A stretch of 64,000 nucleotides of DNA from Escherichia phage JM17, in sequence record PP400779; one strand, written 5' to 3'. The notes beneath the pieces were generated by a model. It worked only from the letters and a program-made list of their open reading frames with translations. It did not search any database and had not been told where the DNA came from. The position numbers were made by a program, and so were the translations under genes. Positions 1,919 to 45,319 of the stretch are shown here, piece after piece; the first letter of the stretch is position 1; each line of letters begins with the position of its first letter.

Positions 1919-2476
1919 ATGACTGAACAAAAACCTAAAAATAACTATGTGAATAATAAAGAGCTTCTCGCCGCTATAATCGAGTGGAAAAAGGAGCTCT
2001 TAAATAATAAAGACCCAAACAAAATTATTCGTCAGAATGATACCATCGGTTTAGCAATTATGCTTATCGCCGAAGGCCTGTCCAAACGTTTCAACTTTTC
2101 AGGATATACCCAGTCTTGGAAGCAGGAGATGATTGCAGATGGGATTGAAGCCTCTATTAAGGGACTTCATAATTTCGACGAAACTAAGTACAATAACCCA
2201 CATGCATACATAACTCGAGCTTGTTTTAATGCTTTTGTCCAACGTATCAAAAAAGAACGTAAGGAAGTTGCAAAGAAATATAGTTACTTCGTTCATAATG
2301 TCTATGACAGTCATGACGATGATATGGTAGCGTTGGTAGATGAAACGTTTATTCAAGACATCTACGATAAAATGACGCATTATGAAGAATCCGCTTATAA
2401 AGCTCCTGGGGCTGAAAAGAAGGAAGTTGTTAGCGATTCGCCTAGTTTGGATTTTTTATATGAGGATGACAATTGA
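1919..2476 (+). CDS. 55: late-transcription sigma factor gp55
   Basis: 185 aa from ATG 1919 ([17 protein letters not shown]...); close match to remembered T4 gp55 sequence and length. Confidence 0.9.
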
Positions 2477-2675
2477 CATCTCTAACTACTTAGAAGAACC
2501 TTTTGACGAAGCAATCCCTTATTTGGTAAAACTGTTGGGTCGTGAATTTAAAATTAATTTTGACATCGACCCTTTGAACCCACATGACGTGTCATTTTCG
2601 ATAAATGGGACTCCGGTTGAGTATGAGTTCTGTATTGAAGAGGGTGGACGTTTTTATTTTAATTTAATGAGATAA
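2460..2675 (+). CDS. hypothetical protein (about 71 aa)
   Basis: ATG 2460 or 2466 overlapping gene 55 end; start uncertain. Confidence 0.35.
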
Positions 2676-2676
2676 T

Positions 2677-3000
2677 ATGACTACCGAGATTATTGAAAAT
2701 AAAGAAGCAGAAGATGCAGTAGCTAAAATGCTACAAGAAATCCAAAAGAAAAATGAAGCTGAAGCACGTAAAAAATCAGAAAAGATTCTTAAAAAGAATC
2801 GTTTTGAACTAAACCGTCTTTATGCTCATGCTCAAGAAGCAGCAATTCAAAACAACTTCGAAGCTTACGAATATGCTATTAAGAAATCTCGGGATATTCT
2901 ACGACAACCATATAATGACAAGTTAATTAAAATCCAGTGGGTTACTACTCGTCAGGCTATTGAGGACATCATTAATGGCGCTAGTTCAAACAAAGTTTAA
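2677..3000 (+). CDS. hypothetical coiled-coil protein (107 aa)
   Basis: ORF begins 2 nt after upstream stop; charged helical composition. Confidence 0.4.
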   Translation: MTTEIIENKEAEDAVAKMLQEIQKKNEAEARKKSEKILKKNRFELNRLYAHAQEAAIQNNFEAYEYAIKKSRDILRQPYNDKLIKIQWVTTRQAIEDIINGASSNKV

Positions 3001-3181
3001 ACGTCTGAAGCTGAACGCAGGGTTCACCCTTAAATTGGGAGGTCCTCTTTGTGTTAAAATTTCTGAAAAGGAATATCACGACGGTTCTATTACAGAAATT
3101 TGTCCGCCTATTGTAAAGGCAGACCCAAAACAACTCGTGTGGGCTGATTCATTTCAAGTTAAGAAATGGTGGAAACGATGA
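2975..3181 (+). CDS. hypothetical protein (68 aa)
   Basis: ATG 2975 with gagga RBS about 8 nt upstream. Confidence 0.3.
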   Translation: MALVQTKFKRLKLNAGFTLKLGGPLCVKISEKEYHDGSITEICPPIVKADPKQLVWADSFQVKKWWKR

Positions 3182-3220
3182 GAGAAATCGGTTTAGGTAT
3201 TTTCTGAGAGATGATTATGC

Positions 3221-3394
3221 ATGACGAACGACCTGACCTCTGAAAATTTCGATAAAATCCGTAAAGGCAAAGCAGAAAGAATGAGACGTTTTAAAGAGTC
3301 TTACGATAAAGCTAAAGCCGAAGGAACTATTACATACAAGCCCATTCGATTTAAAAGTTCAAATGAGCCTCTGTACGGTGTACTATGTGGATAG
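3221..3394 (+). CDS. hypothetical small protein (57 aa)
   Basis: ORF below track cutoff; ends exactly at a UUCG hairpin terminator. Confidence 0.3.
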   Translation: MTNDLTSENFDKIRKGKAERMRRFKESYDKAKAEGTITYKPIRFKSSNEPLYGVLCG

Positions 3395-3418
3395 GAACTC
3401 TTCGGAGTTCCTTTTTTG
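3394..3418 (+). terminator. intrinsic terminator (UUCG tetraloop hairpin + T-run)
   Basis: ggaactc-ttcg-gagttcc followed by tttttt. Confidence 0.6.
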
Positions 3419-3463
3419 CTTTATAAACGGATGATAGAATGAATTAACTAATGAGGAAATAAT

Positions 3464-4737: not shown

Positions 4738-4963
4738 TTATGAAATCCATCGTCATGAATTTAGTATTGGTGACGGTTATATTGGTATCGTTGAATGGAC
4801 TGAGAATTACGAGGAATCAACTCCTCGTTTCTTTGGAACAATGTATGTTACCTGTGAGTACGCACCAGGTGTTGTTATGTATGCAGAACTAGATGAATAT
4901 TTTGCTGATAGGGATGACATGTTAAAATATGTAGAGGACTTCATTCGAAGAGAATACATATGA
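4724..4963 (+). CDS. hypothetical protein (79 aa)
   Basis: ATG 4724 with gagga RBS; ends overlapping gene 46 start. Confidence 0.4.
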   Translation: MTKTDYEIHRHEFSIGDGYIGIVEWTENYEESTPRFFGTMYVTCEYAPGVVMYAELDEYFADRDDMLKYVEDFIRREYI

Positions 4964-6648
4964 AATCATTTAAATTAAATCGTGTTCGTTATCAAAACAT
5001 CATGTCGGTAGGTGGGAATCCTATTGATATCCAATTAGATAAAGTCCAAAAGACATTAATCACTGGTAAAAATGGTGGCGGTAAATCTACGATGTTAGAA
5101 GCCATTACTTTCGGACTTTTCGGTAAACCATTTCGTGATGTTAAGAAAGGACAAATCATTAATAGCACGAACAAGAAAGAGCTCTTAGTTGAGCTTTGGA
5201 TGGAATTCGATGATAAAAAATACTTCATTAAACGTGGCCAAAAGCCCAATATTTTCGAAATCTCCGTTGACGGTGTTCGTCTTGATGAATCTGCCAGCAG
5301 TCGCGACTTCCAAGAAGAATTTGAACGTAGCATCGGAATGTCATACGCGTCTTTTAAACAAATCGTTGTGCTTGGGACGGCAGGATATACCCCTTTCATG
5401 GCTCTTAGCACCCCTGCTCGTAGAAAACTTGTCGAAGACCTTTTAGAAGTCGGCACACTCGCTGAAATGGATAAAATCAATAAGTCTCAAGTTCGCGAAC
5501 TTAATTCTCAGGGACAAGTTCTTGATGCCAAGAAAGATGGTGTTATCCAACAAATTAAGATTTATAACGAGAATATCGAACGTCAAAAGAAATTATCTGG
5601 TGATAATGTAGCGCGTCTACAGAATATGTATGACGACCTAGCCAAAGAAGCTCGTTCATTAAAAGCAGAAATTGAAGAAGCTAATGAGCGACTACTTAAT
5701 ATCGTTCTTGATGAAGACCCTACTGAGGCATTCAACAAGATAGGACAAGAAGCATTCTTGATTAAATCTAAAATCGACTCATATAACAAAGTTATTAAGA
5801 TGTATCATGATGGCGGTACATGTCCTACTTGTGCATCACAGTTGCACCAGGGTGACCCTATTGTCTCTAAGATTACCGATAAGCTTCATGAATGTAATCA
5901 CTCATTCGAGCAACTTACCTGTCACAGAGATAATCTGAGTGTCCTAGTGGACGAATATCGAGCTAATGTTAAGACTAAACAGGACCTTGCATCCGATATT
6001 CGTACCAAGAAACAAGCAATGATTGCCACTATTGATAAAGCTAAGAAAGTTAAAGCTGCAATAGAACAAGCCTCGGCGGAATTTATCGACCATGCTGATG
6101 AGATAGCTTTGCTTCAAAAAGAACTTGATAAAATCATTAAAACAAAATCAGATATCGTTCTTGAAAAATATCATCGTGGTATTATCACAGATATGTTAAA
6201 AGATTCTGGTATTAAAGGTGCTATCATTAAAAAATATGTGCCTCTGTTTAATAAGCAGATTAACCATTATCTTAAAATCATGGAAGCCGATTACGTGTTT
6301 TCTATTGACGAAGAATTCAATGAATCTATAAAATCACGTGGCCGTGAAGAGTTCAGTTATGCTTCATTTAGTCAAGGTGAAAAGGCACGTATCGATATCG
6401 CATTGTTGTTTACATGGCGAGATATTGCTGAAAAGGTTTCTGGTGTTAAAATCAACACTCTAATTCTTGATGAGGTTTTTGATGGTGCTGTCGATTCTGA
6501 GGCTGTTAAGGCTATAGATACCATCCTTGGTAGTTTACAAAATACTAACGTGTTCATTATCTCTCATCGAGACCATGACCCTCAACGTTATGGACAACAT
6601 CTTCAAATGAGCAAAGTTGGACGATTTACTGTGATGACTGTCTCATAA
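4960..6648 (+). CDS. 46: recombination/repair ATPase gp46 (Rad50/SbcC-like)
   Basis: 562 aa; Walker A GKNGGGKST, long coiled coil with CPTC zinc hook, C-terminal LILDEVFDG. Confidence 0.9.
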   Translation: MKSFKLNRVRYQNIMSVGGNPIDIQLDKVQKTLITGKNGGGKSTMLEAITFGLFGKPFRDVKKGQIINSTNKKELLVELWMEFDDKKYFIKRGQKPNIFEISVDGVRLDESASSRDFQEEFERSIGMSYASFKQIVVLGTAGYTPFMALSTPARRKLVEDLLEVGTLAEMDKINKSQVRELNSQGQVLDAKKDGVIQQIKIYNENIERQKKLSGDNVARLQNMYDDLAKEARSLKAEIEEANERLLNIVLDEDPTEAFNKIGQEAFLIKSKIDSYNKVIKMYHDGGTCPTCASQLHQGDPIVSKITDKLHECNHSFEQLTCHRDNLSVLVDEYRANVKTKQDLASDIRTKKQAMIATIDKAKKVKAAIEQASAEFIDHADEIALLQKELDKIIKTKSDIVLEKYHRGIITDMLKDSGIKGAIIKKYVPLFNKQINHYLKIMEADYVFSIDEEFNESIKSRGREEFSYASFSQGEKARIDIALLFTWRDIAEKVSGVKINTLILDEVFDGAVDSEAVKAIDTILGSLQNTNVFIISHRDHDPQRYGQHLQMSKVGRFTVMTVS

Positions 6649-6649
6649 A

Positions 6650-6684
6650 CGCTTTAACATGATGTGGTTATAATGACCACATCA
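6650..6684 (+). promoter_or_regulatory. promoter candidate with TATAAT inside a 9-bp perfect inverted repeat
   Basis: cgctttaa box-like element, then tgatgtggt-tataatg-accacatca (6660-6684). Confidence 0.35.
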
Positions 6685-6702
6685 AATTAAATGGAGAACA
6701 AC

Positions 6703-6891
6703 ATGGAGTATTCAACCGGTCAACATCTTCTTGTTGTCCCTGAAATTAAAAAATATGTTTTGACCAATACGTTTTCAGGTGAAGAACATATTGTTACTGA
6801 ACAAATGCTCAAATCTGCTTTTAAAGATGAGTATAATAAAATAATGTCTAATCGCAATTCCGCATGGACAGTTACCGACTTCTACGAATAA
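6703..6891 (+). CDS. hypothetical protein (62 aa; T4 45.2 position)
   Basis: ATG 6703 with ggaga RBS; position between 46 and rpbA. Confidence 0.4.
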   Translation: MEYSTGQHLLVVPEIKKYVLTNTFSGEEHIVTEQMLKSAFKDEYNKIMSNRNSAWTVTDFYE

Positions 6892-6903
6892 GAGAGAAAT
6901 AAT

Positions 6904-7320
6904 ATGTTTACTACTGTTAAAGGTTTCACTGCTGCTGATCTGAAAGTTACTTCTATCCGTACTGACGCTAACCCACATAACCATAATCGTGTTCGTAAAG
7001 CATGGGTCCTGCATTGTGATGAAGCAAGTGCTAAAAAACTCCAATCTTTGCCACAAGAAACTCGTTTTATGATTTATGGTTTTATTGATAACGATGTATC
7101 TGATATGTGGATTCATCTGATGCGTAAGCACTATAAAGATTCTATCGAAGCAGGTGCTAAAATCGTTCTTGATAAAGACGGTTCTGAGCGTCTGGAAGAT
7201 TTCTACTGTGTTGATGCCGACGAACAACTAATTGCAGCTGGCGAAATTGTTGCTTCTAAAATTCCAGAATATATTGAATCACTGCCTGAAGCTATTAAAA
7301 AGCAGATGGTTGCTGCTTGA
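6904..7320 (+). CDS. rpbA: RNA polymerase-binding protein RpbA-like (138 aa)
   Basis: size and position immediately upstream of the gene 45 region as in T4; sequence only weakly recognised. Confidence 0.5.
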   Translation: MFTTVKGFTAADLKVTSIRTDANPHNHNRVRKAWVLHCDEASAKKLQSLPQETRFMIYGFIDNDVSDMWIHLMRKHYKDSIEAGAKIVLDKDGSERLEDFYCVDADEQLIAAGEIVASKIPEYIESLPEAIKKQMVAA

Positions 7321-7325
7321 TAATT

Positions 7326-7850
7326 ATGAATTTAATATATCTTATAACCTTTTATAATCGTGAGATTAAAAATGAATACCCGTGTTATTATATAGGTTCT
7401 AAAGTTTCGTGTCATTTTAATGGAAAGGATATTATTGAAGATTCTACCGGTAAAATATATACCGGTAGTGTTAATTCCTCGTATTCTCCTTTATATAACA
7501 GATTAATAGACCAAGGCGAATATTCTGTAAAAATTTTAGGCGAAACCACATTAGACCCTAGAAGAATAGAAAGACTATTCCAACTCAATGTTAAAGCCGT
7601 TTCAAATGAAAAATATTTTAATAAGGCTTATGCTAACGAGAAGTCTAGAATATCAGCTAAAGGATATGCACCGTATAAAAATTTAAAAACAGGCAAAATA
7701 GTAAAACTTTCTAAAAACGAAATAAACGAAGATTACGTCGGTGTTAGAAAAAATTGCAAATTGTCGGAGAATCATTTAAACGCAATTAGAGAATTTCAAA
7801 AAAACATATTGGACCAAAGAACGAAGAGAGAAAGTTTCTATTCGTTCTAA
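7326..7850 (+). CDS. GIY-YIG homing endonuclease, N-terminal catalytic part (seg-like)
   Basis: IYLITFYNREIKNEYPCYYIGSK matches GIY-(x10)-YIG; AT-rich codon usage unlike flanking genes. Confidence 0.55.
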   Translation: MNLIYLITFYNREIKNEYPCYYIGSKVSCHFNGKDIIEDSTGKIYTGSVNSSYSPLYNRLIDQGEYSVKILGETTLDPRRIERLFQLNVKAVSNEKYFNKAYANEKSRISAKGYAPYKNLKTGKIVKLSKNEINEDYVGVRKNCKLSENHLNAIREFQKNILDQRTKRESFYSF

Positions 7851-7854
7851 AAAA

Positions 7855-8217
7855 ATGTTTAACGATAGAGATTTTGCTTTAAAATTTAAAGATATAATGA
7901 ATTCTCCTAATGTTAAAGATAAAATAAAAATATCTAAAACATTGTATTGGTCTAAACCTGAAAATAGAGCAAAGGCCTCTATCGCAGCTTCGAAAAGAAA
8001 TGCAACCAAAGAATTTAAGGATAAATTCAGAAAATCTAAAGCTAGAGGTACATGGATATTTCATGAACAAAAATTAAAGGAATTGTGGATTGCTTTAGGA
8101 AAACCAAGTTATATTACATTTAGAAAACATGCAATTCAGCATGGTTTTAATGATGAATCATACCAAGGTGCTATCCGGTCTTGGACAAATTATTATGCTA
8201 ATAGGAAACCTAAATGA
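7855..8217 (+). CDS. basic protein, possibly the detached C-terminal DNA-binding part of the GIY-YIG endonuclease
   Basis: starts 4 nt after upstream stop in another frame; same AT-rich codon usage; K/R-rich. Confidence 0.35.
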   Translation: MFNDRDFALKFKDIMNSPNVKDKIKISKTLYWSKPENRAKASIAASKRNATKEFKDKFRKSKARGTWIFHEQKLKELWIALGKPSYITFRKHAIQHGFNDESYQGAIRSWTNYYANRKPK

Positions 8218-8900
8218 AACTTAGCCGTGAAACCGTAAATATTCTGAAAAACTTCGCTTCTATTAACTCTGGCATTCTGCTGAGTCAAGGTAAATTTATT
8301 ATGACTCGTGCAGTTAATGGCACCACTTATGCGGAAGCAAATATCTCTGATGAAATTGATTTTGACGTAGCACTTTATGATTTGAATAGCTTCTTAAGCA
8401 TTTTGAGTCTAGTGTCTGATGATGCTGAAATTTCAATGCACACTGATGGCAATATTAAAATTGCAGATACACGTTCCACAGTTTATTGGCCTGCCGCTGA
8501 CAAGAGCACCATTGTTTTTCCTAATAAGCCAATTCAATTCCCAGTGGCTTCTGTGATTACTGAAATTAAAGCTGAAGACCTTCAACAATTGCTTCGAGTT
8601 TCACGTGGACTTCAGATTGATACAATTGCTATTACAAATAAAGATGGTAAAATTGTTATCAATGGCTATAATAAAGTTGAAGATTCCGGACTAACTCGTC
8701 CTAAGTATTCTTTGACTCTTACTGATTATGACGGTTCTAATAACTTTAACTTCGTAATCAATATGGCTAATATGAAAATCCAGCCAGGTAACTATAAAGT
8801 AATGTTGTGGGGAGCTGGTGATAAAGTTGCAGCTAAGTTTGAAAGCTCTCAAGTAAGTTATGTTATTGCGATGGAAGCCGATTCTACTCACGACTTCTAA
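8214..8900 (+). CDS. 45: sliding clamp gp45
   Basis: 228 aa, same length as T4 gp45; synteny 45-44-62. Confidence 0.9.
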   Translation: MKLSRETVNILKNFASINSGILLSQGKFIMTRAVNGTTYAEANISDEIDFDVALYDLNSFLSILSLVSDDAEISMHTDGNIKIADTRSTVYWPAADKSTIVFPNKPIQFPVASVITEIKAEDLQQLLRVSRGLQIDTIAITNKDGKIVINGYNKVEDSGLTRPKYSLTLTDYDGSNNFNFVINMANMKIQPGNYKVMLWGAGDKVAAKFESSQVSYVIAMEADSTHDF

Positions 8901-8932
8901 GTCAAAGCTTTACGTTTATTGTGATACGATTA

Positions 8933-8950
8933 TGGAGGAGAAATCCTCCA
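8933..8950 (+). promoter_or_regulatory. stem-loop with GAAA tetraloop in 45-44 intergenic region
   Basis: tggagga-gaaa-tcctcca; no T-run; possible translational control or processing element. Confidence 0.35.
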
Positions 8951-8975
8951 GTTTAATGATAATGAGGAAAATTAC

Positions 8976-9938
8976 ATGATTACTATCAATTCCAAAGAAC
9001 ACATTCTAGAACAGAAATATCGTCCTTCTTCCATTGACGAATGTATTCTGCCTGCGTATGACCATGAAACATTCAAGTCTTTAGTATCTAAAGGAAAACT
9101 TCCTCATATTATTTTGCACTCTCCATCTCCTGGTACCGGTAAAACAACCGTAGCAAAAGCATTATGTAATGATATCAATGCCGAAATGATGTTCGTCAAC
9201 GGTTCTGATTGTAAGATTGATTTTGTGCGTGGTCCATTAACTGCATTCGCTCGTTCAGTCTCAATGGAAGGCAAGCCTAAAGTTATTGTTATTGATGAAT
9301 TTGACCGTAGTGGCCTCGCCGAATCACAACGGCACCTTCGTACATTCATGGAAGAATTCTCTAGTAACTGTTCTATTATTATTACTGCCAACAACATCGA
9401 TGGAATTATCGAACCGTTACGTAGTCGTTGTCGAGTTATCGAATTCGGACGTCCAACCGAAGAAGATAAAATCTCGATGATGAAGAAAATGATTCATCGT
9501 ATGGTTGAAATCTGTAAGAATGAAAATATCGAAATCGCGGATATGAAAGTTGTTGCAGCTCTGGTTAAAAAGAACTTCCCAGACTTTCGTCGTACAATTG
9601 GTCAATTAGACCAGTACTCGTCTAAAGGTGTTCTTGATGCGGGTATTTTGTCTATCGTAACTAATGACCGTGGCACAGTCTCTGATGTTATCGAAGCAAT
9701 GAAGAACAAAGATATCAAACAGCTTCGTGCATTAGCTCCAAAATATGCCGCTGATTATTCATGGTTCATCGATAAATTAGTTTCAGAATGTTATGACCAA
9801 GTTGCACCTGGTAAAAGTATTATTTCGCTTTACGAAATTGCAGGTGAAAATAATAAGTTTCATGGACTAGCTAGTAATATTGAATTACATGTTATGTATA
9901 TGCTTCTTCAACTGACTTGTGAATTGACTTGGAAATAA
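8976..9938 (+). CDS. 44: clamp-loader large subunit gp44 (AAA+)
   Basis: 320 aa; Walker [15 protein letters not shown] Walker B, SRC motif. Confidence 0.9.
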
Positions 9939-9939
9939 T

Positions 9940-10503
9940 ATGAACTTATTTGATGATGACGTCCAGCTTAACGAGCACCAAATTGCATGGAAGTCTAACG
10001 ACGCTGATGCGATTCAAAAATGTGCTGACATGTTTAAAGAAAAACCTGAGAATGAATTCTTTAAAATCATTAATGCTATTAATGAAAAGAAATCTATGTC
10101 AATTGCTCAGGTCGACTACTCAAAATTTATGGTTGAGAACTCATTATCCCAGTTCCCAGAATGTATGCCAGCCGTTTACATGATGAACTTAGTCGGTTCT
10201 GAATTAAGTGATGAAGCGCACTTCAACTATATGATGGCGGCAATTCCACGTGGTCGTCGATTCTCTAAATGGGCTAAACTAGTCGAAGACACTTCAGAGT
10301 TACTAGTTATCAAACTGTTGATGAAACATTACACAATCAACATGAATGATGCTACCGAGTATAAGCGGCTCCTTGAAAAAAATAACAAGTTGCCAATAGT
10401 CCTTAAAGAACTGAAGGCCATGGTCACTGATGAGTTTCTCAAAGAAGTTACAAAAAATGTGAAAGAACAAAAACAATTTAAAAAATTAGCATTGGAATGG
10501 TAA
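9940..10503 (+). CDS. 62: clamp-loader small subunit gp62
   Basis: 187 aa as in T4; starts 2 nt after gene 44. Confidence 0.8.
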
Positions 10504-10505
10504 AA

Positions 10506-10874
10506 ATGATCGAAATTAAATTGAAGAACCCCGAAGATTTTCTGAAAGTCAAAGAGACTCTGACCCGTATGGGCATCGCTAATAACAAGGATAAAGTTCT
10601 TTATCAGTCCTGTCATATCCTCCAAAAGCAAGGTAAATATTACATCGTCCACTTTAAAGAAATGCTGCGTATGGACGGACGTCAGGTTGATATTGATGGT
10701 GAAGACTATCAGCGACGTGATTCGATTGCTCAGTTGCTTGAAGACTGGGGCTTGATTGTTATTGAAGACTCTGCTCGTGAAGATCTGTTTGGCCTGACTA
10801 ATAACTTCCGTGTTATCTCTTTTAAACAGAAAGATGACTGGACTTTGAAAGCAAAATATACAATTGGTAATTAA
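10506..10874 (+). CDS. regA: translational repressor RegA
   Basis: 122 aa from ATG 10506 (MIEIKLKNPEDFLKVKETLTRMGIANNKDKVLYQSCHILQK...) nearly identical to remembered T4 RegA. Confidence 0.85.
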   Translation: MIEIKLKNPEDFLKVKETLTRMGIANNKDKVLYQSCHILQKQGKYYIVHFKEMLRMDGRQVDIDGEDYQRRDSIAQLLEDWGLIVIEDSAREDLFGLTNNFRVISFKQKDDWTLKAKYTIGN

Positions 10875-10897: not shown

Positions 10898-10955
10898 TGG
10901 AGTATAATAAGTTCATCAACAAACAAAAGACAATAACTCGTCTAAAGGAAATTAA

Positions 10956-13667
10956 ATGAAAGAATTTTACTTAACGGTTGAACAGATTGGTGATTCAATT
11001 TTTGAACGTTACATCGATTCTAATGGCCGTGAACGTACTCGTGAAGTAGAATATAAACCATCACTGTTTGCTCATTGTCCAGAAAGTCAGGCTACGAAAT
11101 ATTTCGATATCTACGGTAAGCCGTGTACTCGTAAGTTGTTCGCTAATATGCGTGATGCCTCCCAATGGATTAAACGCATGGAAGATATCGGACTTGAAGC
11201 ACTTGGCATGGACGATTTCAAATTGGCGTATTTGTCTGACACTTATAACTATGAAATCAAATACGACCATACAAAAATTCGTGTGGCTAACTTCGACATC
11301 GAAGTAACATCTCCGGATGGGTTCCCTGAGCCATCACAAGCAAAACATCCGATTGATGCTATCACCCATTATGACTCAATTGACGACAGGTTCTACGTAT
11401 TTGATCTATTGAATTCTCCATATGGTAATGTAGAAGAATGGTCTATTGAAATCGCTGCTAAGCTTCAAGAACAAGGCGGTGATGAAGTTCCATCTGAAAT
11501 TATCGATAAAATCATTTATATGCCGTTCGATAACGAAAAAGAATTGTTGATGGAATATCTCAACTTCTGGCAACAGAAAACTCCTGTCATTTTGACTGGA
11601 TGGAACGTTGAGTCATTCGATATTCCATATGTGTATAACCGAATCAAGAATATTTTTGGCGAATCTACTGCGAAACGTTTATCACCACATCGTAAAACTC
11701 GTGTTAAAGTTATCGAAAACATGTATGGTTCTCGTGAAATCATTACATTGTTCGGTATCTCTGTTCTTGATTACATTGACCTTTACAAAAAATTCTCTTT
11801 TACCAATCAACCGTCGTATTCTCTGGATTACATTTCAGAATTTGAATTGAACGTTGGTAAACTGAAATATGATGGCCCTATTTCTAAGCTTCGTGAAAGC
11901 AATCACCAACGATATATTTCTTATAACATTATCGACGTGTATCGTGTATTGCAAATTGATGCTAAGCGTCAGTTCATCAACTTGAGCTTGGACATGGGTT
12001 ATTATGCTAAGATACAGATTCAATCTGTGTTTAGCCCAATTAAAACATGGGATGCTATTATTTTTAATAGCCTTAAAGAGCAGAACAAGGTGATTCCACA
12101 AGGTCGTTCTCACCCGGTTCAACCTTATCCCGGCGCTTTTGTTAAGGAACCTATTCCAAATCGATACAAATATGTAATGAGTTTCGACCTTACATCTCTG
12201 TATCCAAGTATTATTCGCCAAGTGAATATTAGCCCGGAAACAATAGCAGGAACGTTTAAAGTAGCTCCATTGCATGATTATATTAACGCAATCGCTGAAC
12301 GTCCTTCAGATGTGTACAGTTGCTCTCCTAACGGCATGATGTATTATAAAGACCGTGATGGTGTAGTTCCAACTGAAATCACTAAGGTCTTTAATCAACG
12401 TAAAGAACATAAAGGTTACATGCTTGCAGCTCAACGTAATGGTGAAATAATTAAAGAGGCATTGCATAATCCTAATCTTTCTGTTGACGAACCATTAGAT
12501 GTTGATTATCGTTTCGACTTCAGTGATGAGATTAAAGAAAAGATTAAAAAGTTGTCTGCTAAATCTCTTAATGAAATGTTGTTTAGAGCTCAACGTACTG
12601 AAGTTGCAGGTATGACCGCACAAATTAACCGTAAATTGCTCATCAACTCACTTTATGGTGCACTTGGAAACGTTTGGTTCCGTTATTATGATTTGCGTAA
12701 TGCTACTGCAATCACAACATTCGGGCAAATGGCTTTACAGTGGATTGAACGTAAAGTTAATGAATATCTGAATGAAGTTTGTGGTACAGAAGGTGAAGCT
12801 TTCGTTCTTTATGGTGATACGGACTCTATTTACGTATCTGCTGATAAAATTATCGATAAGGTTGGTGAATCTAAATTCCGTGATACTAACCATTGGGTAG
12901 ACTTCTTAGATAAGTTTGCACGTGAACGTATGGAACCTGCTATTGATAGAGGTTTCCGTGAAATGTGCGAATACATGAACAATAAACAACACTTAATGTT
13001 CATGGACCGAGAAGCTATCGCTGGGCCTCCGCTTGGTTCTAAAGGTATTGGCGGATTTTGGACTGGTAAGAAACGTTATGCATTAAACGTGTGGGATATG
13101 GAAGGTACTCGTTACGCTGAGCCTAAACTCAAAATCATGGGTCTAGAAACTCAGAAATCTTCGACCCCTAAAGCAGTACAGAAAGCTCTTAAAGAATGTA
13201 TTCGTCGTATGCTTCAAGAAGGTGAAGAATCATTACAAGAATATTTTAAAGAGTTTGAAAAAGAATTCCGTCAATTGAATTATATTAGCATCGCGTCGGT
13301 ATCTTCTGCGAATAACATTGCTAAATATGACGTCGGTGGATTCCCTGGTCCTAAATGCCCGTTCCATATTCGTGGAATTCTGACATATAACCGAGCTATC
13401 AAAGGTAATATCGATGCACCACAAGTTGTAGAAGGTGAAAAAGTATATGTTCTGCCTTTACGTGAAGGAAACCCATTCGGTGATAAATGTATCGCATGGC
13501 CTTCTGGTACTGAAATCACAGATTTAATTAAAGACGATGTACTTCATTGGATGGACTACACTGTTCTCCTTGAGAAGACATTTATTAAACCACTTGAAGG
13601 ATTCACATCAGCAGCGAAACTCGATTATGAGAAGAAAGCATCTCTGTTCGATATGTTCGATTTTTGA
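10956..13667 (+). CDS. 43: DNA polymerase gp43 (family B), RB69-type
   Basis: 903 aa; N-terminus MKEFYLTVEQIGDSIFERYIDSNGRERTREVEYKPSLFAHCPESQ and exo/pol motifs (FDIE, YGDTDS) match remembered RB69 gp43. Confidence 0.97.
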   Translation: MKEFYLTVEQIGDSIFERYIDSNGRERTREVEYKPSLFAHCPESQATKYFDIYGKPCTRKLFANMRDASQWIKRMEDIGLEALGMDDFKLAYLSDTYNYEIKYDHTKIRVANFDIEVTSPDGFPEPSQAKHPIDAITHYDSIDDRFYVFDLLNSPYGNVEEWSIEIAAKLQEQGGDEVPSEIIDKIIYMPFDNEKELLMEYLNFWQQKTPVILTGWNVESFDIPYVYNRIKNIFGESTAKRLSPHRKTRVKVIENMYGSREIITLFGISVLDYIDLYKKFSFTNQPSYSLDYISEFELNVGKLKYDGPISKLRESNHQRYISYNIIDVYRVLQIDAKRQFINLSLDMGYYAKIQIQSVFSPIKTWDAIIFNSLKEQNKVIPQGRSHPVQPYPGAFVKEPIPNRYKYVMSFDLTSLYPSIIRQVNISPETIAGTFKVAPLHDYINAIAERPSDVYSCSPNGMMYYKDRDGVVPTEITKVFNQRKEHKGYMLAAQRNGEIIKEALHNPNLSVDEPLDVDYRFDFSDEIKEKIKKLSAKSLNEMLFRAQRTEVAGMTAQINRKLLINSLYGALGNVWFRYYDLRNATAITTFGQMALQWIERKVNEYLNEVCGTEGEAFVLYGDTDSIYVSADKIIDKVGESKFRDTNHWVDFLDKFARERMEPAIDRGFREMCEYMNNKQHLMFMDREAIAGPPLGSKGIGGFWTGKKRYALNVWDMEGTRYAEPKLKIMGLETQKSSTPKAVQKALKECIRRMLQEGEESLQEYFKEFEKEFRQLNYISIASVSSANNIAKYDVGGFPGPKCPFHIRGILTYNRAIKGNIDAPQVVEGEKVYVLPLREGNPFGDKCIAWPSGTEITDLIKDDVLHWMDYTVLLEKTFIKPLEGFTSAAKLDYEKKASLFDMFDF

Positions 13668-41831: not shown

Positions 41832-44045
41832 ATGATTATTGAAACGGCTAAAGAAACGATTATTGGTTCTGGTGGTAAAAGCACAGCATTTACTATTCAA
41901 GGCAATAGCAAAGTTTATAAGATTTTGTCTAATGACCTTTATACAAACAAAGAATTGGCTTGTGTACGTGAATTAATCACAAACTGTATCGATGGACAAA
42001 TTCTTAATGGTTGCACTGATAAGTTTATTGTTCAGGCTCCAGGTCGTTTAGACCCACGTTTTGTAGTTCGAGACTTTGGTCCTGGTATGAGTGATTTCAC
42101 CATTCGAGGTAATGACGAAGAGCCAGGAATCTATAACTCATATTTTGCTTCAACTAAAACATCGAGTAACGATTTCATTGGTGGATTCGGACTCGGTTCT
42201 AAAGCTCCACTAGCATATACCGATACGTTTAACCTTACGTCTTATCACAACGGTGAAGTTCGTGGTTACGTAATCTACCAAGATGACACGGGTCCACAAA
42301 TTAAGCCAACCTTTGTAGATAAGATGGGCCCCGATGACCGTACGGGTGTAGAAGTAGTTGTACCGGTTAACCCAGAAGATTTTGAAAAGTTCGCATCTGA
42401 AATTGCATATGTTATGCGTCCTCTAGGTGATATTGCAGAAGTTCGTGGTGTTAAAGATATTAAATACTTCCCTGAATTTGACGATGTATATTTGGCCAAG
42501 GAAGCTCCATGGGGTGAACGCGGTAATATCATGGCTGTTTACGGTGGTATTGTATATCCAATCGGAAGTGTTATTAAAGAACAAACATGGATGATGACGC
42601 GATGCACTACAGCTTATATTAAATTCCCTATGGGTGAACTAGATGTAGCCCCGTCTCGTGAAGCATTGTCATTTGATAAACGTACAGTAGCAAATATCCA
42701 TAAACGTGTTGCAGAAATCGATGCTAAATTGTTCGCTGAAGATTCTAAGAAATGGATTGATTGTAAATACCCACGTCATGTGTTCCGTGAAATTGATTCT
42801 CTTGGCTATACCGCTCGTAAATACATGGAAAAGGCCGGGTCTAATATTGAATCACTGAAATACTCTAAAGAACAACTAACTTATTCCGAGTTGTACAAAC
42901 GTTTTAAAATGGGGCCTGAGTGGTGTAATCTTGGCGTCGTATACGATATCGTTGAATCCCCTCGTCTTCGTCGTATTCGTGAAAGTGGTAGCTCATCAAC
43001 AACCATTTCAATTAATAGCCTGATTGGCATTAACATTAAAAACGTTGAAATTGTTATTGACGACGTTAAGGGACGCGTTCCATTAATGCGAGCTCTTAAT
43101 TCAATTGAAATGTCTAAAGACGAGGTTAAATTAACCGGTAAAGTTCCACGCGGTTTTGGTAAAAGCGTACTATTCGTTGACCCTACAGACGAAGATGCAA
43201 TGAAACTTCTGGAACGCCTTAAAGTTATCTTTGATGGCGACAACATTAACATGTACAAGACTTCAGAGCTTTTACAAATCGTTAAGCCATGGATTGAAGT
43301 CAAGACTCGTTCTAATGGGCCTCGCCCTAAATCACCGAGTGCCCATCGTTTCTTCAAGAACGAAAACGATGTTTGGGTATCGGAAGATCTCTTTATTCCG
43401 GCAAGTGAAGCAGATGAAATCCAAGGTTATGCTATAGTTCGTAATCGTTCTAATGCTGAATGTCTTGACTCAGATAAAGGTTGGTTGAACTATGACTCCA
43501 ATTTCTTGACCCGTATTGCTGATTTGTCAGGTATTAAAGAGTTCACTGTAGTCCGTCCACAGATTGCTAAGAAAGTTCGTAAACTTGGTGAAGTAGAATG
43601 CTTGTTCGAAAAATCAATTAATGACTATATTACGCTAATTGATAAAGTGGATTATGATGAGTATGTATCACCAAGTCGTAGAGCACAGCCTTATTTGAAT
43701 CATATTACTCGTAATGAAGAGCTTAACTTCCTTAGTAAGTATTTTAGCTCTAAGAACAAAGAAATCAGTAAAGATTTTGCAAAACTTTCAACAGTAAATA
43801 ATCGTTGGGGATGGAATCGATTCGCAGGTGCTGATAACAGAGACCTGAACACGAAGTTAGAATTGTGTGCTAAAATTTTCGATAAGCTTAAAGATAATGC
43901 TTACGATAATGATGATAAAATGGTTATTGAATTCGAAACCAATTATCATATTGTGTCAGAATACATGGGACGACGTGGTACTCTTTCCAAAGAACAGGTC
44001 GCTCAAATCGTTAAATTCATGAAGGCCGTGGAAGCGGCCAAATAA
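41832..44045 (+). CDS. rIIA: rIIA protein
   Basis: 737 aa; MIIETAKETIIGSGGKSTAFTI...ELITNCIDG...GFGLGSK close to remembered T4 rIIA. Confidence 0.85.
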   Translation: MIIETAKETIIGSGGKSTAFTIQGNSKVYKILSNDLYTNKELACVRELITNCIDGQILNGCTDKFIVQAPGRLDPRFVVRDFGPGMSDFTIRGNDEEPGIYNSYFASTKTSSNDFIGGFGLGSKAPLAYTDTFNLTSYHNGEVRGYVIYQDDTGPQIKPTFVDKMGPDDRTGVEVVVPVNPEDFEKFASEIAYVMRPLGDIAEVRGVKDIKYFPEFDDVYLAKEAPWGERGNIMAVYGGIVYPIGSVIKEQTWMMTRCTTAYIKFPMGELDVAPSREALSFDKRTVANIHKRVAEIDAKLFAEDSKKWIDCKYPRHVFREIDSLGYTARKYMEKAGSNIESLKYSKEQLTYSELYKRFKMGPEWCNLGVVYDIVESPRLRRIRESGSSSTTISINSLIGINIKNVEIVIDDVKGRVPLMRALNSIEMSKDEVKLTGKVPRGFGKSVLFVDPTDEDAMKLLERLKVIFDGDNINMYKTSELLQIVKPWIEVKTRSNGPRPKSPSAHRFFKNENDVWVSEDLFIPASEADEIQGYAIVRNRSNAECLDSDKGWLNYDSNFLTRIADLSGIKEFTVVRPQIAKKVRKLGEVECLFEKSINDYITLIDKVDYDEYVSPSRRAQPYLNHITRNEELNFLSKYFSSKNKEISKDFAKLSTVNNRWGWNRFAGADNRDLNTKLELCAKIFDKLKDNAYDNDDKMVIEFETNYHIVSEYMGRRGTLSKEQVAQIVKFMKAVEAAK

Positions 44046-44054
44046 GGAAACATT

Positions 44055-44990
44055 ATGTACAATATCAAATGCTTGTCCCAAGAAGAACAGTTAGAAGCTT
44101 ACGGCCTGGTTGAATCAGGCAAATGGACTCGTAAAGAAATTGCCGATTACTTCGACATTTCAACAGATACTCTTCGTAAGATTGTTAAGAATTTTAAAGC
44201 AGAAGAGAAAGCAGCTGAATTTGAAGATGAAGAACAGGTTCCAGAAAATGATGAACCTATTATCGGCGGACATCGTCCTGAAATCGTATGGAACGCGTCA
44301 TCTAAATTTATTTCAATTATTGAAGGACGCGTAGCATACAATGCGACTCCATCAAGTCATGCAAATTTTGAAGAAATTAAAGCTAATCTGGTCGCAGGAA
44401 ACCTTAGTAAAGCTGTCGAACTTATTAACATCAAGAAAGCTATTACTAAGTTTGTTGATGGTAATGTTACTATTGAAGGTGGTAGTTTATTTTATCAAGG
44501 TATAGAGATTCGTTCAGGGCTGGTTAACCGTATTATTGATTCTATGGAAAAAGGTGAAGACTTTAAATTCTATCTGCCATTCCTTGAAAACCTGTTAGAA
44601 AACCCAAGTGAAAAAGCTGTACAACGTTTATTCGACTTCTTGGTTGCAAACGATATTGAAATCACTGAAGATGGTCATTTCTATGCGTGGAAAGTAGTTC
44701 GTAAGGACTATTTAGACTGCTATAGTGGTACATTTGATAACTCGCCTGGTAAAGTTGTTTCAATGCCTCGTACTCGTGTTAACGATGATGATACTCAAAC
44801 CTGCTCCCGTGGTCTACATGTTTGTGCTAAATCATATATTCGTTACTTTGGTTCAAGCTCAGATAAAGTTGTTAAAGTTAAAGTTCATCCACGTGATGTT
44901 GTATCTATCCCAGTTGACTATGGCGATGCTAAGATGCGTACTTGTCGTTACGAAGTAATTTCAGACGTTACTGAATTATTTGCAGAATAA
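44055..44990 (+). CDS. rIIB: rIIB protein
   Basis: 311 aa; MYNIKCLSQEEQ...FLVANDIEITEDGHFYAWKVV...TCSRGLHVC close to remembered T4 rIIB. Confidence 0.85.
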   Translation: MYNIKCLSQEEQLEAYGLVESGKWTRKEIADYFDISTDTLRKIVKNFKAEEKAAEFEDEEQVPENDEPIIGGHRPEIVWNASSKFISIIEGRVAYNATPSSHANFEEIKANLVAGNLSKAVELINIKKAITKFVDGNVTIEGGSLFYQGIEIRSGLVNRIIDSMEKGEDFKFYLPFLENLLENPSEKAVQRLFDFLVANDIEITEDGHFYAWKVVRKDYLDCYSGTFDNSPGKVVSMPRTRVNDDDTQTCSRGLHVCAKSYIRYFGSSSDKVVKVKVHPRDVVSIPVDYGDAKMRTCRYEVISDVTELFAE

Positions 44991-44995
44991 TAATT

Positions 44996-45018
44996 GGGGA
45001 CTTCGGTCCCCTTTTTTC
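44996..45018 (+). terminator. intrinsic terminator (UUCG hairpin + T-run)
   Basis: ggggac-ttcg-gtcccc followed by tttttt. Confidence 0.7.
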
Positions 45019-45031
45019 TTTAGGGGTAATT

Positions 45032-45319
45032 ATGATTCATCCATTTGACGTATCAGAATCCAAAATTGCTAATCTTCGTGGTCATCATAAGTGTAAATCA
45101 GTTTATTGCGCTAAATTGGTAAAACATCCTGGTGATGCACACTACGGCTGGTTAGAATGCGACGAAGTTGTTATTGAAATCCCACCGGTAGATGCAGAAT
45201 ATCTTGAAGAAGGTGACCGCATTTATTTTGGCGAACTACACATCAGAGGTATCTATGGTAAAGACGAACTTGGGGCTGTTGAGGCTGAAGAGTCTTCCGA
45301 CATTTATCCTGTCGAATGA
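45032..45319 (+). CDS. hypothetical protein (95 aa)
   Basis: ORF downstream of rIIB terminator. Confidence 0.35.
   Translation: MIHPFDVSESKIANLRGHHKCKSVYCAKLVKHPGDAHYGWLECDEVVIEIPPVDAEYLEEGDRIYFGELHIRGIYGKDELGAVEAEESSDIYPVE

Follow-up and report, generated by a model that had tools for sequence, protein, structure and literature searches.

A frameshifted and probably defunct Seg-like homing endonuclease gene at the rpbA/gene 45 junction of a Mosigvirus phage

The interval between rpbA and gene 45 of Escherichia phage JM17 (sequence record PP400779) contains two short open reading frames (ORFs) that are the halves of one homing endonuclease gene, split by a single additional A in a homopolymer. 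All positions given here refer to the window that we analysed, which is a 64,000-nucleotide (nt) stretch of this phage read 5′ to 3′ on one strand. The original prediction had offered three readings of the ORF pair: a frameshifted, decaying homing endonuclease, a two-piece enzyme or a sequencing frameshift. The first of these has been borne out to the extent that both ORFs are colinear with one 296-amino-acid (aa) protein, and very probably the locus holds a free-standing Seg-type homing endonuclease gene (HEG) that has been frameshifted, is decaying and is a non-functional pseudogene in this genome.

Genomic setting of the split gene

The window comes from the genome of a T4-type phage in the genus Mosigvirus (RB69-like group). 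Over positions 7200–8300, identity is 100% with Escherichia phage FL18 (PP400780) and 99.4–99.7% with eight other Mosigvirus phages. The window represents a phage distinct from FL18, from which it differs at 130 positions over 14.3 kb, with other blocks being 97–99% identical.

The ORF list and the annotation of relatives place gene 46 (4960–6648) and 45.2 (6691–6891) on one side of the locus and gene 44 (8976–9938), gene 62 (9940–10503) and regA (10497–10874) on the other. The immediate neighbours are conserved genes on the plus strand, namely rpbA (6904–7320), encoding an RNA polymerase binding protein, on the left and gene 45 (8214–8900), encoding the sliding clamp, on the right. The former is identified by its ORF and by the RpbA annotation in identical or near-identical phages, and Pfam Phage_RpbA matches the FL18 copy; the latter is likewise identified by its ORF and the annotation of relatives. 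The rpbA stop codon forms the left edge of the inserted block, with divergence from phages that lack the endonuclease gene beginning only from 7317 on.

ORF1 (7326–7850, plus strand, 174 aa) runs from ATG 7326, or alternatively TTG 7317, to the TAA at 7848–7850. Exactly 4 nt (AAAA) separate this stop from ATG 7855 of ORF2 (7855–8217, plus strand, 120 aa), which lies in the +1 frame relative to ORF1 and ends with the TGA at 8215–8217. These coordinates, together with a GC content for 7326–8217 of 29.1% versus 37.2% in both flanks, agree with the original description of an AT-rich ORF pair with a stop at 7850 and a second ORF 4 nt on in another frame. The description of ORF2 as encoding a K/R-rich domain also stands, as lysine and arginine make up 23% of its residues.

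The endonuclease ATG is located 5 nt past the rpbA stop (7321–7326) and has no recognisable Shine–Dalgarno sequence before it, and in Tequatrovirus the start of the endonuclease gene and the stop of rpbA overlap. Because of this arrangement, the sequence suggests that endonuclease expression depends on translational coupling to rpbA. A scan revealed no late promoter (TATAAATA) near the endonuclease gene, and a scan for sigma-70-like promoters gave no excess over shuffle expectation. At the opposite end, the gene 45 ATG overlaps the stop codon of ORF2, and hence of the endonuclease (ATGA, 8214–8217), and the gene 45 ribosome-binding site (AGGAAA, 8204–8209) is embedded in the endonuclease coding sequence.

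The 5′ part of the endonuclease gene also carries a perfect 9-bp hairpin at 7444–7468 (plus strand; CTACCGGTA-AAATATA-TACCGGTAG), with a stability of about −14.9 kcal/mol with context and a weak T-rich tail after it. Terminators are present in the 5′ coding regions of T4 mobE and segF (PMC2988022). The hairpin in the window may be a by-product of repeated ACC–GGT codons, because it is not kept in the Tequatrovirus or Gaprivervirus orthologs.

One gene split by an additional A

Phages FL31, AV116, AV109, AV114 and AV118 carry a single 891-nt ORF encoding 296 aa at the identical place. The corresponding gene in the window, taken as a whole (7326–8217, plus strand), is 892 nt long, and removal of one A from the run at 7798–7804 (plus strand) restores an ORF of 296 aa with no difference from the FL31 protein. 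Run lengths measured directly in a DNA alignment of ten copies are A7 for the window and FL18 and A6 for the eight others, and intact alleles read ...TTT CAA AAA ACA TAT TGG (FQKTYW) at the shift site. The lesion is therefore located at this A-run, roughly 50 nt upstream of the stop/start gap, and not in the 7840–7860 stretch that the original prediction had proposed to resequence.

Translation of the three frames reveals how the coding sequence is divided. ORF1 is native up to K159 and then continues through 15 wrong codons (residues 160–174, 7803–7847) to its TAA stop, and this out-of-frame tail (7803–7850, plus strand; NILDQRTKRESFYSF) has no homology in the protein alignment. The native reading resumes in the +1 (ORF2) frame from 7804, where it begins TYWTKERREKVSIRSKK-MFND..., such that positions 7804–8217 (plus strand) hold the C-terminal 137 codons of the endonuclease (aa 160–296) according to both translation and protein alignment. 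Although this frame is open from about 7780, ORF2 itself corresponds to residues 177–296, and residues 160–176 are absent from both products. A homolog search covering 5.8 billion proteins identified full-length homologs of 292–295 aa, at 63, 60 and 49% identity, that align with ORF1 and then with ORF2 in order.

A GIY-YIG nuclease domain of the Seg type

The putative GIY-YIG catalytic domain spans about aa 1–105 (7326–7640, plus strand) and includes the IY (aa 4–5), YIG (22–24) and Y-x-G-S (45–48) motifs as well as E82 and N99. ORF1 reads MNLIYLITF...CYYIGSK as first reported, and the GIY-YIG character assigned to its N-terminus holds at the profile and fold level. Specifically, the PHROG 7504 'homing endonuclease' profile matches residues 1–137 (E = 2e-17), and an exhaustive profile search of 1.84 billion representatives yielded 228 relatives. 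Residues Y5, Y22, G24, Y45, S48, E82 and N99 are invariant among 88 aligned family members, 64 of which carry NUMOD3 and six of which give a weak match to Pfam SegE_GIY-YIG (PF19835). No Pfam family, including PF01541 and PF19835, matches ORF1, ORF2 or the intact protein at E values up to 10, which is a failure of sensitivity in the models and not an absence of the motif.

Comparison of the family profile with the experimentally characterised T4 SegE by using hhalign gave an E value of 1.8e-5, with coincident positions for the GIY, YIG, YxGS, Glu and Asn elements; E82 and N99 line up with the Glu and the YYN Asn of SegE, respectively. BLASTP of the Mosigvirus protein against T4 SegE was not significant, and the profile comparison alone succeeded. 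The GIY motif takes the form L-I-Y at aa 3–5 and is followed by YIG at aa 22–24, a spacing of 16 residues compared with the usual 10–11. The SegE alignment reveals this difference to be a six-residue insertion in the GIY-YIG hairpin.

An AF2 model (pLDDT 90.6) has strands at residues 2–8 and 21–26, and the N-terminal domain is predicted by this model to adopt the GIY-YIG alpha/beta fold. A first model of the full-length protein, built from a 4-sequence alignment, reached a pLDDT of 57 and was discarded. Structural matches in BFVD include SegG-like and SegE-like proteins. A Foldseek search of the PDB returned nothing significant, though I-TevI chains ranked 1 and 3, and a profile of four sequences found no match among PDB sequences.

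The canonical GIY-YIG arginine that follows the YIG motif is R27 in I-TevI, whose catalytic residues are E75 and N90. No invariant Arg is present in the equivalent stretch of the sequence alignment of 88 members. The nearly invariant K26 in this neighbourhood might substitute for R27, and the T4 SegE sequence is also devoid of an Arg immediately past its YIG motif.

A shared C-terminal module

Residues 160–296 of the endonuclease form a helical, basic and putatively DNA-binding region. The family profile matches the I-TevI DNA-binding domain (1i3j) in its NUMOD3 segment with an E value of 4e-4; the Mosigvirus protein itself has no NUMOD match. In an hhalign comparison with I-TevI, the NUMOD3 region alone was aligned and the catalytic domain was not. 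The C-terminal part of the I-TevI query agrees with the 1i3j alignment. The Mosigvirus C-terminal region is also found in two other proteins, where it follows a canonical PF01541 GIY-YIG domain in one and a weak HNH match in the other. The protein seems to be a modular Seg-type GIY-YIG endonuclease because of the PHROG 7504 match, the invariant motif residues, the SegE profile alignment, the I-TevI DNA-binding-domain match and this sharing of the C-terminal module.

Distribution and mobility

The endonuclease gene is present in 9 of 153 Mosigvirus records and absent from the other 144, and 142 Mosigvirus records share a conserved empty rpbA/45 junction (identity of 95% or higher). Homologs at 57–63% identity occupy the same slot in Tequatrovirus and in Gaprivervirus VR26, which brings the number of genera with an occupied site to three; the ortholog of Tequatrovirus SHBML-50-1 is already named 'homing endonuclease' in RefSeq. 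Mean pairwise divergence among the carriers is 0.27% within the gene versus 3.45% on the left (2.4 kb) and 1.70% on the right (4.1 kb). This value, far below those of the flanks, and the eight-point drop in GC content together indicate that one element spread recently into Mosigvirus genomes that had already diverged.

Codons 3–9 of gene 45 (8222–8240) carry dense changes relative to the empty allele, mostly conservative or synonymous, and the sequences are identical beyond them. The right edge of the mobile block is therefore likely to be located inside gene 45 at 8222–8240. Because T4 Seg enzymes cut within or beside the neighbouring conserved gene (PMC2988022), the recoded patch is a candidate for an altered, cleavage-resistant target. 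A literature search for a homing endonuclease of the rpbA/gene 45 junction returned nothing specific.

Several other places in these genomes vary among the same phages. A 739-nt insertion separates gene 46 from 45.2 (window position 6648–6664) in FL31 and G2285, and its minus-strand ORF of 238 aa is annotated as a 'homing endonuclease' in FL31. This insertion is missing from the window, FL18 and the AV phages and represents, at a distance of 0.7 kb from the rpbA/45 gene, a second endonuclease that some of these phages have and others lack. Directly upstream of gene 47, AV116, AV109 and AV115 have an 804-nt ORF ('IME08-like hypothetical protein') in a slot at approximately 2650–3450 of the window (L013/L016/L017, about 2460–3265), and FL31, G2285 and AV111 have small ORFs there instead, making this another mosaic slot. 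Gene 43 (DNA polymerase, about 10955–13666) appears uninterrupted in the window, as judged from its gapless alignment to the single 2,712-nt coding sequence of FL18; the G2285 gene contains a group I intron with an internal ORF. The window ORFs for rIIA (41832–44045, 737 aa) and rIIB (44055–44990, 311 aa) are intact. FL18 lacks about 2.5 kb corresponding to window 42607–45134, has its rIIA annotated in fragments and looks like an rII deletion variant.

Recurrent inactivation of the endonuclease gene

Degenerate homing endonuclease genes are familiar, and the rpbA/45 gene has been disrupted more than once. At least six independent disrupting indels are found in a cluster of 99% identity, five of them in A-runs. 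In addition to the A6-to-A7 change at 7798–7804 in the window and FL18, a second A7 run at 7849–7855 is an independent frameshift hotspot in sister phages, having become A6 in G2285 and A11 in AV115. A run at 7926–7930 has changed from A5 to A4 in AV111, as has one at 7529–7533 in a metagenomic/run-assembly contig (P0238), leaving a 70-aa product. The last three runs (all plus strand) are intact in the window. A further contig (P0239) has 1 nt added at 8047–8050. In the Tequatrovirus clade, the ESh24 ortholog carries a T6-to-T7 shift.

Because the window and FL18 have an identical 3.3-kb block in common (6104–9409), the A7 that they share is, on this sequence evidence, one mutational event and not two. 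Substitutions are few, with only six variable columns in the endonuclease gene, and four of the six sites were judged to be non-synonymous from their codon positions and the deposited protein sequences. Across eight genomes, the flanking genes have no small indels in 6,449 nt that include 25 homopolymer runs of at least 5 nt, versus four in the 892-nt endonuclease gene (Fisher p = 0.008 on runs, 2e-4 per nucleotide). This confinement of indels to a dispensable gene is the pattern of real mutations under relaxed or negative selection, and not of random base-calling errors.

The same distribution bears on whether the additional A is real. A sequencing or assembly artefact, in which the true run is A6, the gene is intact and the extra A is a homopolymer miscall, is an unlikely explanation, as judged from the deposited sequences. 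The lesion adds one base to a homopolymer, a place where sequencing errors are typical; every other broken copy in GenBank also results from an altered homopolymer length, and the ESh24 record is flagged UNVERIFIED. However, base-calling errors would not have spared the essential genes on either side. Moreover, the A7 allele has been deposited for two genomes (FL18, XAO15049/50; the second, XAO14667/8) that differ by about 1% elsewhere. Illumina MiSeq normally reads runs of 6–7 bases correctly. The FL and AV phage genomes were produced on this instrument (2 × 250) with de novo assembly (PMC12032242, PMC10844046).

Function of the split form

Very unlikely, too, is that the split gene still works, either because slippage on A7 yields a low level of full-length enzyme or because the two polypeptides act together or separately; the DNA-binding half, for example, could serve as a site-specific binder or repressor. 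The needed shift is +1 and falls inside the A7 run, where tRNA-Lys or RNA polymerase could slip, and the two frames overlap over 7780–7850. Furthermore, ORF2 begins only 4 nt past the ORF1 stop, an arrangement that would permit termination–reinitiation, and homopolymer changes are reversible in principle, with many alleles differing only in run length. Some leakiness or reinitiation is conceivable because of this +1 shift within an A-run and this proximity of the ORF2 ATG to the stop.

Several features argue against such residual function. The shifted arrangement is not conserved: two of the ten copies have it, and the other eight, like every divergent ortholog, are in frame at this point. Other phages carry their breaks elsewhere in the gene, and therefore no consistent two-piece architecture exists; this diversity, and the 17 residues (160–176) that neither product contains, render the two-piece enzyme of the original prediction unlikely. 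There is no Shine–Dalgarno sequence before ATG 7855. In addition, the A7 run is shorter than those known to support efficient slippage in E. coli. A programmed frameshift was also considered and rejected: among the ten copies, A7 occurs in the window and FL18 alone, divergent orthologs each have one continuous ORF that lacks an A-run at the shift point, and a shift site that is not conserved is therefore not a programmed signal.

It is highly improbable that the A-runs act as a reversible, slippage-driven on/off or attenuation switch for a costly or toxic nuclease, set in phage populations by run length, or that A7 leaks full-length enzyme by slippage in transcription or +1 slippage in translation. 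If this were true, the 'pseudogene' would be a low-expression state and not a dead gene.

Finally, we can dismiss almost entirely the idea of two unrelated small genes made adjacent by chance, even though FL18, G2285 and AV115 are annotated with two separate 'hypothetical proteins', because ORF1 and then ORF2 align in order and without overlap to single 292–296-aa proteins (49–99% identity), as the colinearity check that accompanied the original prediction called for, and because deletion of one A gives the intact FL31 protein, which refutes this reading.

Proposed mechanism and significance

The preferred reading, a decaying Seg-type HEG, can be framed as a sequence of events modelled on T4 Seg enzymes. 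The intact protein, with an N-terminal GIY-YIG nuclease, a linker and a basic helical region predicted to bind DNA, would cleave the rpbA/45 junction of a co-infecting relative that lacks the HEG. Recombinational repair, with the HEG-carrying genome as template, would then introduce the gene and a few flanking nucleotides into the cleaved one. Streisinger-type strand slippage during replication could subsequently have extended A6 to A7 at 7798–7804. Translation from ATG 7326 would now produce the catalytic domain and part of the linker, followed by 15 wrong residues and a stop, and the DNA-binding part would be stranded in the +1 frame, made at most from ATG 7855 through termination–reinitiation. 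Such frameshifts would persist if the gene serves no purpose, or does mild harm, when empty targets are no longer encountered.

By analogy with I-TevI, the split form is most likely inactive and the gene a non-functional pseudogene, because the nuclease domain has been severed from the DNA-binding domain. The gene is most likely in the degeneration phase of the HEG invasion–decay cycle. Invasion followed by decay is an ordinary step for mobile genes such as HEGs and is conceptually unsurprising.

These findings have consequences for annotation, in that one disrupted HEG should take the place of the two 'hypothetical proteins' of the window, FL18, G2285, AV115 and AV111. The locus offers a natural snapshot of the HEG life cycle, in which a very recent sweep of an AT-rich gene through Mosigvirus genomes that had already diverged was followed almost immediately by repeated homopolymer frameshifts. 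The rpbA/45 junction would also represent a homing site not found in T4, and the intact FL31 and AV116 alleles provide straightforward material for defining a new Seg-type specificity.

Comparison with known systems

The gene appears from its sequence to be a Seg-like free-standing HEG that is closest to the SegE and SegG branch. Like the T4 Seg endonucleases (SegA–SegG), it stands alone in an intergenic position flanked by conserved T-even genes, has a modular basic C-terminal region and is patchily distributed among related phages. Its N-terminal GIY-YIG domain has in common with SegE/SegG-like proteins the catalytic E and N residues as well as the YIG(S/K) and YxGS motifs. Unlike the T4 genes, it occupies a junction that does not figure in the list of 15 endonuclease sites given for T4 (PMC2988022). 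Its protein also falls below curated Pfam thresholds and has a C-terminal domain without a Pfam family, and the searched literature contained no experimental endonuclease activity, target site or homing for the rpbA/45 family. The copy in the window is frameshifted.

The gene also differs from I-TevI. I-TevI is encoded in the intron of T4 td, whereas the rpbA/45 gene is not carried by an intron. The catalytic domains show no detectable sequence similarity, no zinc finger was recognised in the protein from Mosigvirus, and the hairpin of the rpbA/45 protein is approximately six residues longer (Y5...Y22 versus Y6...Y17 in I-TevI).

A concept in the literature (PMC2790892) is that an inactive resident HEG could in principle still move, mobilised in trans when a co-infecting phage supplies an intact copy. 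Other defunct phage HEGs, such as the inactive I-TevIII of T4 nrdB and the 'truncated GIY-YIG' genes of Aeromonas phages, have likewise been inactivated in place and are still resident. In contrast to these examples, the lesion in the rpbA/45 gene is a slip of a single nucleotide in a homopolymer, and many alleles of nearly identical sequence, intact or independently broken, are available for sampling side by side.
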